Shown one piece after another: positions 15,395 to 18,737 of a DNA stretch of 64,000 bases. Positions within the stretch are counted from its first letter, which is position 1. Each line of letters begins with the position of its first letter. This DNA is from Microbacterium sp. (GTDB lineage: Bacteria > Actinomycetota > Actinomycetes > Actinomycetales > Microbacteriaceae), in contig NZ_JBDIAB010000001.1 of assembly GCF_039812165.1 (NCBI RefSeq), positions 5,193 through 69,192 of the forward strand. The letters run 5' to 3'. Position numbers and translations under genes: made by a program. Under the pieces are notes generated by a model. That model made no database searches. It was not told where the DNA came from and worked only from the letters and a program-made list of their open reading frames with translations.

Positions 15395-15498
15395 GCGATG
15401 GCGCCACTTCTCTGCGATGGCGCCACATATTCGTAGGGGCCGAAGCAGGGAACTGGCGCCGACCTCGGGCTCCTTCCGGTTGGCGACACCTTTCTGCG
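15395..15498. repeat. Intergenic repeat cluster, same family as 54634-54945
   Basis: GCGATGGCGCCAC twice (15395, 15414); CAGGGAACTGGCGCCGA 15446-15462 is identical to 54731-54747; TTGGCGACACCTTTCTGC 15480-15497 matches 54634-54651 at 17/18. Confidence 0.8.
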
Positions 15499-15539: not shown

Positions 15540-16400
15540 CTACTTGAGCAGACGCGAGAGCCGCCGGTCGGCGAGGATCTTGCCGCCGGTCTGGCAGGTC
15601 GGGCAGTACTCCAGGCTGTTGTCGGCGAAGAACACCGACCGCACGGTGTCGCCGCACACGGGGCAGGCCTCGCCGCGGCGGCCGTGCACGCGCATGCCGC
15701 GGCGCTTGGCGTCCTTGAGATCGGCGGGCGGCTTTCCGGATGCCGTGGCCACGGCATCCGTCAACAGCTCGATCATCGCGTCGTAGAGCCGGTCGACGTC
15801 CGCGTCGCCGAGGCTCGTGGCGAGCGCGTACGGCGACATCCTCGCGGCGTGGAGGATCTCGTCGGAGTAGGCGTTGCCGATGCCGGCGATGATCGACTGG
15901 TCGCGCAGGACCCCCTTGATCTGCGTGCGCCTGCCGTCGAGCAGCCCGGCGAGCGTGTCGCGGTCGAAGGCGGGGTCGAGCGGATCCGGGCCGAGGCGCG
16001 CGACGCCGGGGACGTCGCGCGGGTCGCGCACGACGTAGACGGCGAGGGACTTCTTCGTGCCGGCCTCGGTGAGGTCGAAGCCGGAGCCGTCGTCGAGCCC
16101 TACGCGCAGGGCGATGGGCGTCCGGCCCGGGCGGATGACGGTGGACGGCAGCTGGTCGTACCAGCGCAGCCAACCGGCCTTGGCGAGATGGAAGACGAGG
16201 TGCGGCCCGGTCGTGGCGAGGTCGACGAACTTTCCGTGGCGCGCGGCGCCCGTGACGACCGCGCCCTTCAGGGCGTCGACCGGCGGATCGTAGGTCTTGA
16301 GCGCAGCGATGTTCGCGACCGTGACCTTCGTGATCGCGAGCCCCGCGAGCCGCTCGCCGAGGAAGTCGACGAGCCCCTGCACCTCCGGCATCTCGGGCAT
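15540..16400 (-). CDS. Fpg/Nei-family DNA glycosylase
   Basis: MPEMPEV N-terminal catalytic Pro, H2TH DQSIIAGIGNAYSDEIL, zinc finger CPVC...CPTCQ. Confidence 0.93.
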   Translation of the reverse strand: MPEMPEVQGLVDFLGERLAGLAITKVTVANIAALKTYDPPVDALKGAVVTGAARHGKFVDLATTGPHLVFHLAKAGWLRWYDQLPSTVIRPGRTPIALRVGLDDGSGFDLTEAGTKKSLAVYVVRDPRDVPGVARLGPDPLDPAFDRDTLAGLLDGRRTQIKGVLRDQSIIAGIGNAYSDEILHAARMSPYALATSLGDADVDRLYDAMIELLTDAVATASGKPPADLKDAKRRGMRVHGRRGEACPVCGDTVRSVFFADNSLEYCPTCQTGGKILADRRLSRLLK

Positions 16401-16492
16401 GCGCCCATCCTCGCACGCAGCTCCGACGATGCCCAGGTGTTGCACGGCCGCGAGCCGCTGGCCCTCGGGCTAGGTTCGCCGCGCCCGCTGGT

Positions 16493-16561
16493 CATAACTC
16501 AGGCAAGACGGCGGCTCGGCCCGGCCGAGCAGTCTCTGACGGCTGTTCTGCCTGAGTTGTG
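16493..16561. repeat. REPIN-like inverted-repeat doublet, left flank of the DUF559 gene
   Basis: CATAACTCAGGCA (16493-16505), 43-bp spacer with an internal GCTCGGC/GCCGAGC hairpin, TGCCTGAGTTGTG (16549-16561). Confidence 0.85.
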
Positions 16562-16719
16562 CGCGCTGCCGCGATGGTTCCGGGAGATGCCGGGTGTCCG
16601 TTACCTCTTGCGAGACCTCAAACCGAAGAGTCCTCCTCCACAAGCGGCCAATCCCAGCAGCTCTGCACATTCTCGGGAACGAGCCTCTTGGCGGCTTCGG
16701 ATGGGTCCACCCTGGGAGG

Positions 16720-17583
16720 ATGCTGCGATCGCGGGTCGAAAAGGGAACGGTCCTGACCCGTGCCGATCTGCTCTCCGCGGGCATGCGTCCGAGGCAGATC
16801 ACGGCCGCGGTGGGGAACGGGAGCCTTCAGCGACTCCGCCGCGACAGGTACCTCGCGGAACCGCTCGACGGCGTCGGCCAGGCCGTTCGGGTGGGAGGTC
16901 GACTCGCCTGCGTGTCGATGCTGGCGCCGCTCGGGGTCTTCGTCCTCGACAGCTCACGGCTGCATGTCCATGTCGAACGTTCGATGTCCCGGTTGCGCTC
17001 GCCCCACGATCGTCTGCGTGGACTGGACCAGAACTCTCGGCGGGAACTGGACCTGCACTGGTGGCCGTTGCGAGGAGACGACGCCACACTCGGCCACGTC
17101 GGACTCCTCGATGCCGTGTGCCAGGCGATCAGGTGCCAGCCCCCGCGCGCCGCGGTCGCGACCATCGACAGCATCCTTCATCTCGGTCTGATGACACGAG
17201 CGGAGATCCGCGACCTCTTCGGATGCCTGCCCAAGCAATACCGCATCATCCTCTCTCTGACAGACGGAATCGCCGAGTCCGGCCCGGAGACGTTCATGCG
17301 CCTGATCCTCCGGCAACTCGGGCTGCGCTATCGGACGCAGGTGACGATTCCGGGCGTGGGCCGAGTGGACTTCCTCGTCGAGGGATGGCTGATCATCGAG
17401 TGCGACAGCAGGGCGCACCATGAAGGCTGGGAGAAGCAGCGTCAGGACCGACGCCGTGACCTGGCTGCCGCCGCGCTCGGCTACGCGACGCTCAGGCCGC
17501 TCGCCGAGCACCTCATGTACGACCCCGCTGTGGTCATCTCAGCCGTGCGCGGAATCGCTCGCACCCGCCGCCGCGCGGCGTAG
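16720..17583 (+). CDS. AbiEi-like N-terminal wHTH plus C-terminal DUF559/Vsr-like PD-(D/E)xK endonuclease
   Basis: N-terminal TRADLLSAG...GSLQRLRRDRY; C-terminal ESGPET..R...QVTIPGVGRVDFLVEGWLIIECDSRAHH...DRRRD...GY..LR; visibly more A/T-ending codons than neighbours. The ORF is open back to 16594, so the start is uncertain. Confidence 0.8.
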   Translation: MLRSRVEKGTVLTRADLLSAGMRPRQITAAVGNGSLQRLRRDRYLAEPLDGVGQAVRVGGRLACVSMLAPLGVFVLDSSRLHVHVERSMSRLRSPHDRLRGLDQNSRRELDLHWWPLRGDDATLGHVGLLDAVCQAIRCQPPRAAVATIDSILHLGLMTRAEIRDLFGCLPKQYRIILSLTDGIAESGPETFMRLILRQLGLRYRTQVTIPGVGRVDFLVEGWLIIECDSRAHHEGWEKQRQDRRRDLAAAALGYATLRPLAEHLMYDPAVVISAVRGIARTRRRAA

Positions 17584-17623
17584 GCGCAGCGGGCAGGCCG
17601 GTCACGGTTCGCGGCACTATCGC

Positions 17624-17698
17624 GCGCATAACTCAGGCAGATCAAGCCCGCCTGACCTGTGAGGCCTCGTTTGGCCTCGAACTGCCTGAGTTATGCGC
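17624..17698. repeat. REPIN-like inverted-repeat doublet, right flank of the DUF559 gene
   Basis: Perfect 17-bp inverted repeat GCGCATAACTCAGGCAG (17624-17640) / CTGCCTGAGTTATGCGC (17682-17698); 43 bp between the 13-bp cores; internal GAGGCC/GGCCTC hairpin. Confidence 0.9.
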
Positions 17699-17732
17699 AG
17701 GGTGCGAGCCGGATGAGGTAGCCGCCTGGACG

Positions 17733-18737
17733 CTAGACGCGGCGGAGGAGGCCGACCTTGTCGTAGACGTCGGCGAGGGTCGCGTTCGCGACCTCCTCGG
17801 CGCGCCCCGCGTTGACCGCGAGCACGCGGTCGAGCTCGCCGGGATCGGCCAGCAGCGCGAGCGCGCGCTCGCGTACCGGGCCGAACTCGTTCACGACGAC
17901 CTCGGCGAGGCCCTTCTTGAAGTCTCCGTAGCCGCGTCCGGCGTACTCGTCCTCGATCGACGGGATCTGACGCCCGGTCAGCGCGGCGTAGATCACCAGC
18001 AGGTTCGACACGCCCGGCTTGGCCTGCCGGTCGTAGCGCACCGAGCCCTCCGAGTCGGTGACGGCCCGCATGATCTTCTTCGCGGTGACCGCCGGGTCGT
18101 CCAGCAGCCACAGCACGCCGGCGTCCGACTCGGCCGACTTCGACATCTTGGCGGTCGGGTTCTGCAGGTCGAAGATGCGCGCGGTGTCCTGCTGGATGAC
18201 CGGCATCGGCACCGTGAACGCCCGCCCGTACCGCGAGTTGAACCGCTCCGCGAGGTCGCGCGTGAGCTCGACGTGCTGCTTCTGGTCGTCGCCGACCGGC
18301 ACGATGTCGGTCTGGTAGAGCAGGATGTCGGCCGCCATGAGCATCGGGTAGGTGAAGAGCCCGACGTTGGTGGCGTCGGACCCGTACCGCTGCGACTTGT
18401 CCTTGAACTGCGTCATGCGGCCGGCCTCGCCGAAGCCGGTGATGGTCGACAGGATCCACGCCAGCTCGGCGTGGGCGGGCACGTGCGACTGCACGTACAG
18501 CGTCGCGCGCGACGGCTCGATGCCGGCCGCGATGTACTGGGCGGCGGTGCGCCGCGTCTTCTCGCGCAGCTCGGCCGGGTCGTTCGGCTGGGTGAGCGCA
18601 TGCAGGTCGACGACCGAGAAGAACGCCTGGTACGACTGCTGCAGCTCGCGCCACTGCATGAGCGCCCCGATGTAGTTGCCGATCTGGAGGGAGTCGGCGG
18701 AGGGCTGCATTCCGGAGTAGAGGCGCGGTTTGGTCAC
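17733..18737 (-). CDS. trpS: Tryptophan--tRNA ligase
   Basis: SGMQPS, LQIGNYIGA, VDLHALT, VPVGDDQKQH, KMSKS. Confidence 0.97.
   Translation of the reverse strand: MTKPRLYSGMQPSADSLQIGNYIGALMQWRELQQSYQAFFSVVDLHALTQPNDPAELREKTRRTAAQYIAAGIEPSRATLYVQSHVPAHAELAWILSTITGFGEAGRMTQFKDKSQRYGSDATNVGLFTYPMLMAADILLYQTDIVPVGDDQKQHVELTRDLAERFNSRYGRAFTVPMPVIQQDTARIFDLQNPTAKMSKSAESDAGVLWLLDDPAVTAKKIMRAVTDSEGSVRYDRQAKPGVSNLLVIYAALTGRQIPSIEDEYAGRGYGDFKKGLAEVVVNEFGPVRERALALLADPGELDRVLAVNAGRAEEVANATLADVYDKVGLLRRV

Follow-up and report, generated by a model that had tools for sequence, protein, structure and literature searches.

In a 64-kb stretch of DNA from Microbacterium sp. (the window, meaning the whole stretch that was analysed), we found a gene for a nuclease with an AbiEi-like winged helix and a DUF559 domain that is bracketed on both sides by inverted doublets of one 13-bp arm. 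All four clear paralogues of this gene in the host genome, the window gene included, were bracketed by doublets with their own arms (GCATAACTCAGGCA, GCACAACGGCGGAGATC, TCGGAGATC and GATCAGGAGATC), whereas 10 out of 1500 random gene-sized intervals passed the same bracketing test (0.7%), one of these being a true paralogue. Bracketing by genome-specific arms was also found at 30 out of 58 Microbacterium orthologue loci in public genomes and for 7 of 16 homologues from five further genera of the family. We see about an even chance that the window holds one unit of a repeat-plus-enzyme partnership, between a winged-helix/Vsr-fold nuclease and its cognate palindromic arrays, that extends across the Microbacteriaceae. 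The preliminary description of this locus had proposed a pairing analogous to that of repetitive extragenic palindromic (REP) sequences and REP-associated tyrosine transposases (RAYTs), with a different nuclease. The organisation it proposed is borne out by these counts, whereas recognition of the doublets as a cruciform is not favoured.

Bracketed nuclease genes in the host genome

To describe the window locus, we scanned the window for the 13-bp arm CATAACTCAGGCA, allowing up to two mismatches. Four matches were found, at 16493-16505 (+), 16549-16561 (-, one mismatch), 17627-17639 (+) and 17683-17695 (-), where 0.18 were expected, and a count of four was reached in 0 out of 100 shuffles. The arm, which is not self-complementary, forms one inverted pair on each side of the gene, with a 43-bp spacer in each pair. 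The sequences of the two spacers are unrelated to each other, and single-strand folding placed a small GC hairpin of its own within each spacer (z = -4.96 for the left doublet and -6.14 for the right, with the arms contributing most). The preliminary description had reported the two pairs, the absence of the arm from the rest of the window and the unrelated, hairpin-bearing spacers, and all of these were confirmed. The left doublet (16493..16561, inverted repeat I11) lies in the divergent region between the nei gene (-) and the nuclease gene (+), whose likely start codon is about 160 bp further downstream. The right doublet (17627..17695) has perfect 13-bp arms, is extended to 17624-17698 by imperfect complementarity (inverted repeat I2, with 26-nt arms that are 88% complementary), and occupies the space where the nuclease gene and trpS converge. 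Neither doublet is assigned a strand.

We then searched the host genome (G000, an assembly of 312 contigs that is about 90% complete). In this search, which the preliminary description had suggested, the arm was found to recur outside the window, in three further CATAACTCAGGCA-arm doublets on contigs C60 (66-bp spacer), C104 (43 bp) and C265 (43 bp, with a degenerate arm). All three are flanked by ordinary genes (hydrolase/LigD primase-polymerase; FGGY/PfkB kinases; short-chain dehydrogenase/enoyl-CoA hydratase). The genome also encodes three further paralogues of the nuclease at 28-32% identity, and the idea that each paralogue would have its own flanking repeat held for all four. The two doublets that flank a gene are direct copies, near-identical over 70 bp at the paralogue on C123, and a more distant family member on C41 was found to be flanked by CGCGAGACC-type doublets. 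The arm family of each paralogue was also present as solo doublets away from its gene, with five doublets in all for family A, 6 for family B (GCACAACGGCGGAGATC), 25 for family C (TCGGAGATC) and 13 for family D (GATCAGGAGATC).

Additional repeat families were found to share the plan of these elements. In the well-populated families of the genome, conserved boxes come two to each half of an element, at a distance of about 19 bp, and the halves are inverted (→ → ← ←). Families with this plan and units of about 19 bp included E (CGAGTCACTG, 47 elements, some with 5-8 units), H (GAACTTCGCA, 19), F (CGCGAGACTCCA, 12) and G (CGCGAGAGTGCA, 11), as exemplified by elements at C4:874-941 (E), C32:2830-2904 (H) and C1:5015-5085 (G, just upstream of the window start). 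Altogether, 137 elements were counted in eight families. The arms beside the C41 gene are merely related to those of family F. In a search for cognate genes of families E and H, pairs of family E doublets were found to enclose only a phosphoribosyltransferase, an FMN reductase and an aminotransferase. A search of the approximately 90%-complete genome for the RAYT domain PF01797 (Y1_Tnp) gave no match.

A fifth, distant MTES_1575/DUF559-like gene, a 391-aa open reading frame (ORF), was observed at G000:C37:9661-10836 (L064:1162-2337, - strand). It has tandem direct repeats on both sides, with units containing GTCGCGACCATGTGCGTCA and TGACTTGGCCCG, and no simple inverted doublet.

Nuclease fold and anatomy of the repeats

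The longest ORF of the window gene, 16594-17583 (P0001, 329 aa), opens at a GTG codon at 16594. We take the ATG at 16720 as the likely start, because residues 1-41 of P0001 are predicted to be disordered and the homologues are about 285-290 aa long. The likely coding sequence is therefore 16720..17583 (+), encoding 287 aa plus a stop. A structure model of P0001 was built from an alignment of 58 sequences (26-78% identity), with a mean predicted local distance difference test score (pLDDT) of 86 and a predicted template-modelling score (pTM) of 0.81. The preliminary description had proposed a winged helix-turn-helix joined to a Vsr/DUF559-like nuclease, and Pfam, PDB profiles and Foldseek agreed with it. 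The N-terminal DNA-binding module, a winged helix and a following domain (residues 43-225, 16720..17268, +), was predicted to have the fold of the AbiEi antitoxin and of Rv2827c, since Foldseek matched the N-terminal two thirds to 6y8q (AbiEi antitoxin, E 4e-4) and 1zel (Rv2827c). P0001 itself had no Pfam match to PF13338 (AbiEi_4) at E <= 0.1, and this domain is recorded for many of its close homologues. The C-terminal Vsr-fold/DUF559 nuclease domain (residues 226-329, 17269..17580, +) matched DUF559 (PF04480, 24.6 bits against a cut-off of 20.6) and MTES_1575 in Pfam over residues 238-318, and 3hrl (a DUF559 protein, E 3e-6) and 3r3p among PDB profiles. Foldseek matches to this domain were 3r3p (the I-Bth0305I catalytic domain, template-modelling (TM) score 0.79), Vsr (1vsr and 1cw0) and 3hrl. 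An NCBIfam search of the protein gave nothing useful. Four residues were invariant in the 58 sequences, E232 (17287-17289), D259 (17368-17370), D271 (17404-17406) and H276 (17419-17421), and these are the putative catalytic residues.

Structure prediction suggested that the enzyme probably works as a homodimer joined via its nuclease domains. The predicted homodimer scored 0.74, against 0.06 for the best of three controls, with an interface at residues 265-325, contact agreement between runs of at least 89% and a partner pLDDT of at least 84. In calibration this mark was reached by 20 out of 30 proteins solved as pairs and 1 out of 23 solved as single chains, and the pass may reflect likeness to I-Bth0305I, because the 3r3p catalytic domain was deposited with two chains (A and B). 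A search restricted to proteins of similar length found 1345 relatives. Close homologues carry public names such as 'DUF559 domain-containing', 'AbiEi family antitoxin domain-containing', 'endonuclease domain-containing' and 'very-short-patch-repair endonuclease'.

To characterize the repeats, we analyzed which of their positions are conserved. The four-box elements are 63-75 bp long, at times with extra units. At variable mirrored positions in six families, pairing was 0.24-0.45, compared with 0.34-0.42 with shuffled partners. Because this is no better than shuffled, the complementarity is that of the boxes themselves and does not reflect selection for an uninterrupted hairpin. In the A-type families (those of the window and of the genomes G218 and G220) about 20 bp of each arm are almost invariant. 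Spans from AACTC to GAGTT fall into three length classes, of 63-65, 72-74 and 84-86 bp, with steps close to one helical turn (about 10.5 bp). The fixed 43-bp geometry noted at first therefore holds for both window doublets and represents just one of three length classes across elements.

In about one third of the 84-86-bp elements (L145-L175, from G220 and G218) we observed a central motif like CGCGGAATCCCGCG or CGTGATTCCGCG, irrespective of arm family. It is possible that the conserved nuclease domain contacts or cleaves the DNA at this motif.

The elements were found to be intergenic. Placement was judged by the continuity of codon phase, the open-frame test being uninformative at high GC, and the same coding phase was found on both sides of 5 out of 124 elements, compared with 56% of positions drawn at random. 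Among elements with coding sequence on both flanks, 20 lie between convergent gene ends and 1 between divergent starts. No target-site duplications were found in any of the eight families, in agreement with the preliminary description of the window: the flanking 2 bp were identical in at most about 16% of copies per family, and there was a single 3-bp match.

We favour the doublets being duplex binding-site arrays rather than hairpins or a cruciform, because only short boxes are conserved, the linkers show no compensatory pairing and the N-terminal fold is of the AbiEi type. The lack of target duplications and of a RAYT gene also favours this reading. The suggestion of a paired or cruciform site would then stand for paired sites on duplex DNA, whereas the cruciform is disfavoured by linkers that pair no better than shuffled ones and by the AbiEi fold.

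The gene lies between a Fpg/Nei glycosylase gene (nei, 15540-16445, -) and a class Ib tRNA synthetase gene (the trpS of the preliminary description, 17733-18737, -), with an Exo_endo_phos protein (xthA-like) also among the neighbours. The atypical codon usage reported for the gene was confirmed, with a GC content at third codon positions (GC3) of 0.81 compared with 0.93-0.98 for nei, trpS and the xthA-like gene. An Rfam scan of the region at E <= 1 matched no family, and scans of 16380-17780 for sigma-70 promoters and T-tail terminators gave zero sites. Just downstream of the nei stop, about 64 bp of the window (15400-15463) have at least nine other copies in the genome at 85-97% identity, on C45, C109, C62 (three), C221, C167, C131 and C9. 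These copies carry GCGATGGCGCC-type motifs and form a family distinct from the doublets.

Orthologues, relocation and empty sites in other genomes

We found a homologue between nei and trpS in many Microbacterium species, with two flanking doublets whose arms are uniform per genome and differ across genomes (for example GCACAACTCCTGCA and GCACAACGTCGGCA). The counts of bracketed homologues given above were obtained with a strict two-sided test, in which no more than one mismatch was allowed between the 12-mer arms of a doublet and no more than one when the two sides were compared. Dispersed copies were found to carry the arm of their own genome's gene: G218 contains 14 AACTCAGGC doublets, and G220 contains 7 CAACGTCGGC doublets, matching the arm of its nei-trpS gene, and 17 AACTCCTGCA doublets, matching the arm that brackets a paralogue.

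The unit was also found away from nei-trpS. G218 has no nuclease gene and one solo doublet at nei-trpS, and carries a homologue with two doublets at another locus, so the gene-plus-arrays unit can occupy different loci in different species. One neighbouring gene of this G218 locus could be located in the host genome, and no doublet is present beside it there. The DNA-repair neighbourhood, to which the preliminary description had drawn attention, is incidental, given that the unit sits elsewhere in the genome of one species. An empty site had been sought at this position in relatives, and a clean gap of 31 bp was found between nei and trpS in G205. In six other genomes (G206, G216, G211, G222, G201 and G226; loci L047-L052) the nei-trpS gaps are 600-800 bp long and contain no nuclease gene or recognisable doublet, and an ungapped search for long palindromes in these gaps found nothing relevant.

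These observations bear on whether the doublet-gene-doublet structure is a mobile gene cassette, that is, a selfish unit that excises between its direct doublets and re-enters at another, leaving solo doublets as footprints or landing pads similar to solo long terminal repeats or attachment sites. We consider this unlikely. It would agree well with the direct, near-identical doublets at C123, the arrangement in G218, the clean empty site in G205 and the lower GC3 of the gene. However, each arm family has one gene copy per genome examined, compared with up to 25 solo arrays, and the presence of the gene at nei-trpS in many species of the genus looks like vertical descent. Nor does the cassette explain a unit that has no recombinase, transposase or target duplications, or solo elements whose interiors are unrelated to those at the gene.

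We compared a tree of the proteins with their arm classes. The classes were clustered on the tree, with 16 changes compared with 30.6 when shuffled. With regard to the co-phylogeny test suggested in the preliminary description, this clustering is not independent evidence of co-evolution, because relatives share labels and the arm class switched several times.

Two side observations were made in other genomes. In G043, which belongs to another genus, near-identical 84-bp doublets are paired at a distance of about 220 bp, and the roughly 140 bp that separate them leave no room for the gene (C1:875694-876002, C1:2037607-2037918 and C2:187122-187421). These pairs may have arisen by local duplication or may be what remained after the gene was lost. 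In addition, the nuclease on a contig labelled 'uncultured Blastococcus sp.' (L081) is nearly identical to that on an 'Actinomycetes bacterium' contig (L076), with branch lengths of 0 and 0.005, and the L076 protein groups inside Microbacterium. This discrepancy probably results from misbinning or mislabelling in the public record.

Rival readings, mechanism and relation to known systems

Several findings weigh against a nuclease-array partnership. The strict two-sided test was failed by 28 of the 58 orthologues. No exactly matching partner gene for families E, F, G and H was found in the approximately 90%-complete assembly. A-type interiors cannot be aligned even beside near-identical arms of about 20 bp, and simple copy-and-paste would not yield that pattern. 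A function at the 3' ends of transcripts would likewise suit the preference of solo copies for convergent gene ends. The switches of arm class on the protein tree count here as well, as does a G220 paralogue with AACTCCTG arms that groups apart from the other AACTCCTG proteins. Finally, G205, which is of the same genus and 94% complete, has five A-type doublets with CAYAACTCCTGCA arms (C53:16419, C56:3053, C82:10282, C99:15524 and C109:1099), while the best homologue of the nuclease there has only 29% identity and sits 20 kb away from the closest of these doublets. The G205 doublets are either an orphan repeat population or the sign of a nuclease gene that was left unassembled.

The protein could instead be a plain regulator, an AbiEi-like repressor with the doublets as operators for autoregulation and a small regulon, the activity of its nuclease domain being unrelated or lost. 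The predicted fold matches those of AbiEi and Rv2827c, which bind inverted-repeat arrays in their own promoters (PMC7319586). Conservation of the boxes alone, without hairpin covariation, and the doublet in the divergent promoter region upstream of the gene also agree with operators. A regulator would not account for the second doublet, which is always downstream of the gene, or for solo copies that avoid divergent promoter regions (1 compared with 20 between convergent ends). The putative catalytic residues are invariant across the 58 sequences, and arms turn over between species at a rate that is unusual for a conserved regulon. We therefore regard this reading as quite unlikely.

That the repeats are independent structural elements, REP-like or terminator-like RNA or DNA hairpins that spread by other means and gather where the nuclease genes merely happen to sit, appears very improbable. 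Their predicted stems are strong, they are enriched between convergent gene ends, the genome is rich in them (the 137 elements in eight families), and large families with the same plan lack a cognate gene. On the other hand, matching arms flank every paralogue compared with 0.7% of random intervals, repeat populations are genome-specific and match the local gene, there is no compensatory pairing outside the boxes, and neither T-tail terminators nor an Rfam family was found.

The attachment sites of integrons (attC) have the core consensus RYYYAAC ... GTTRRRY, and about 70 bp is within their size range. We find it scarcely credible that the doublets are attC-type sites for a tyrosine recombinase: a gene does lie between imperfect palindromes of about 70 bp with conserved ends and free, variable interiors, and the outer heptamers GCATAAC / GTTATGC are each one mismatch from the consensus, but the heptamer varies freely in sister families (TCGGAGATC, CAGGAGATC and CGAGTCACTG), no conserved folded structure or covariation was detected, the sites are scattered singly rather than arrayed beside an integrase, and the unit contains no integrase, no genome-wide search for IntI having been made. 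We dropped the attC identity in view of the unrelated ends of the sister families, the lack of covariation and the scattered single sites.

Two other known types of repeat were considered and rejected. Derivation from a miniature inverted-repeat transposable element (MITE) or DDE transposon was rejected on the lack of target-site duplications and of homology along the whole length of A-type copies. The arms are of mixed base composition, unlike the homopurine/homopyrimidine blocks of BoxC, PIT and intrastrand triplex-motif repeats (PMC4666352), and the BoxC/triplex identity was rejected since the TM_ECO consensus (CCCTCNCCC N3-6 GGGNGAGGG N3 GGGNGAGGG) had no match in the host genome.

For the nuclease-array partnership, we propose a mechanism that fits the published binding by AbiEi and Rv2827c and the footprint of I-Bth0305I. 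The evidence consists of genomic associations, from which we infer binding, cutting and spreading. The cognate DNA would be a palindromic array of short recognition boxes, about 70 bp in all, with the 13-bp arms as its outer boxes. The winged-helix modules of the nuclease-joined dimer would read inverted boxes on duplex DNA, which would account for the conservation of the boxes alone and for lengths quantised in steps of about 10.5 bp. The upstream array may be an operator through which the nuclease represses its own gene, in the manner of AbiEi and Rv2827c. The nuclease might nick or cut at or near bound arrays, and the ensuing repair or recombination would keep the boxes uniform and seed new arrays. 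The gene itself could move between arrays through recombination between the two direct copies of the array that flank it.

The partnership most resembles the REPIN-RAYT systems (REPtrons) of Proteobacteria, in which REP doublets (REPINs) form a master-sequence population and the REP is a self-palindromic hairpin with a GTAG-type head. In both systems, a single-copy enzyme gene is flanked by cognate repeats that are also dispersed as intergenic inverted doublets, several mutually specific gene/repeat pairs coexist in one genome, the gene mostly keeps its locus as it is passed on, and target duplications are absent. They differ in the enzyme, which is an AbiEi-type winged helix with a PD-(D/E)xK/Vsr-fold nuclease here and an HUH Y1 transposase in RAYTs. 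Moreover, the arms found here are not self-palindromic hairpins with such a head, only short boxes being conserved and the linkers showing no covariation, and the A-type interiors are unrelated, unlike a master-sequence population.

The comparison with the proteins of known structure points to duplex DNA. The N-terminal fold is shared with AbiEi and Rv2827c of the type IV AbiE toxin-antitoxin systems, with PF13338 occurring in homologues. Monomers of AbiEi and Rv2827c bind 23-bp inverted repeats on duplex DNA, four of which lie in the Rv2827c promoter, an array that resembles the → → ← ← plan (PMC7319586). Unlike in AbiE, there is no adjoining AbiEii (DUF1814) toxin gene, the neighbours being nei and trpS on the opposite strand; a nuclease takes the place of the C-terminal antitoxicity domain; and sites occur on both sides of the gene and genome-wide, not just in its own promoter. 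Above-cut-off PF04480 and a Vsr-type fold link the C-terminal domain to the DUF559/Vsr-like PD-(D/E)xK nucleases, and the invariant E/D/D/H residues are candidates for its active site. Among these, the 'EDxHD' Vsr-like homing endonuclease I-Bth0305I has the closest solved catalytic domain (3r3p). I-Bth0305I is a multidomain homodimer with a footprint of about 60 bp of pseudopalindromic DNA (PMC3239194), a size similar to the doublets, and a dimer is predicted here as well. In contrast to that of I-Bth0305I, a group I intron-encoded enzyme that cuts the allele lacking the intron, the gene described here is free-standing and interrupts no target, and its presumed sites are intact on both sides and elsewhere in the genome.

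In the literature searched, we found no paper describing this layout; none of the papers there that mention DUF559 ties it to flanking repeats, and no paper was found that combines REPIN, RAYT and Actinobacteria. On a more tentative footing than the partnership itself, the system may represent a new class in which a nuclease dimer creates, keeps uniform and depends on its own duplex arrays, with the boxes and their helical-phase spacing kept and the interior free. Such a class might account for many of the unexplained palindromes at actinobacterial gene ends, and its members would be symbionts similar to REPIN/RAYT that arose independently.

DUF559 and 'AbiEi family antitoxin domain-containing' proteins are abundant in actinobacterial annotations with their function unexplained, as are the short intergenic palindromes of high-GC genomes. 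A specific pairing of gene and repeat predicts the DNA sequence that each protein recognises, and it offers protein/site pairs that are naturally orthogonal, of which this genome alone has at least four. Next to REPIN/RAYT, for which this pattern has been described so far, it would make a second, independent case of a repeat population that lives with its own enzyme gene. Should the arrays also mark the ends of transcripts, the finding would bear on terminators without T-tails in Actinobacteria.

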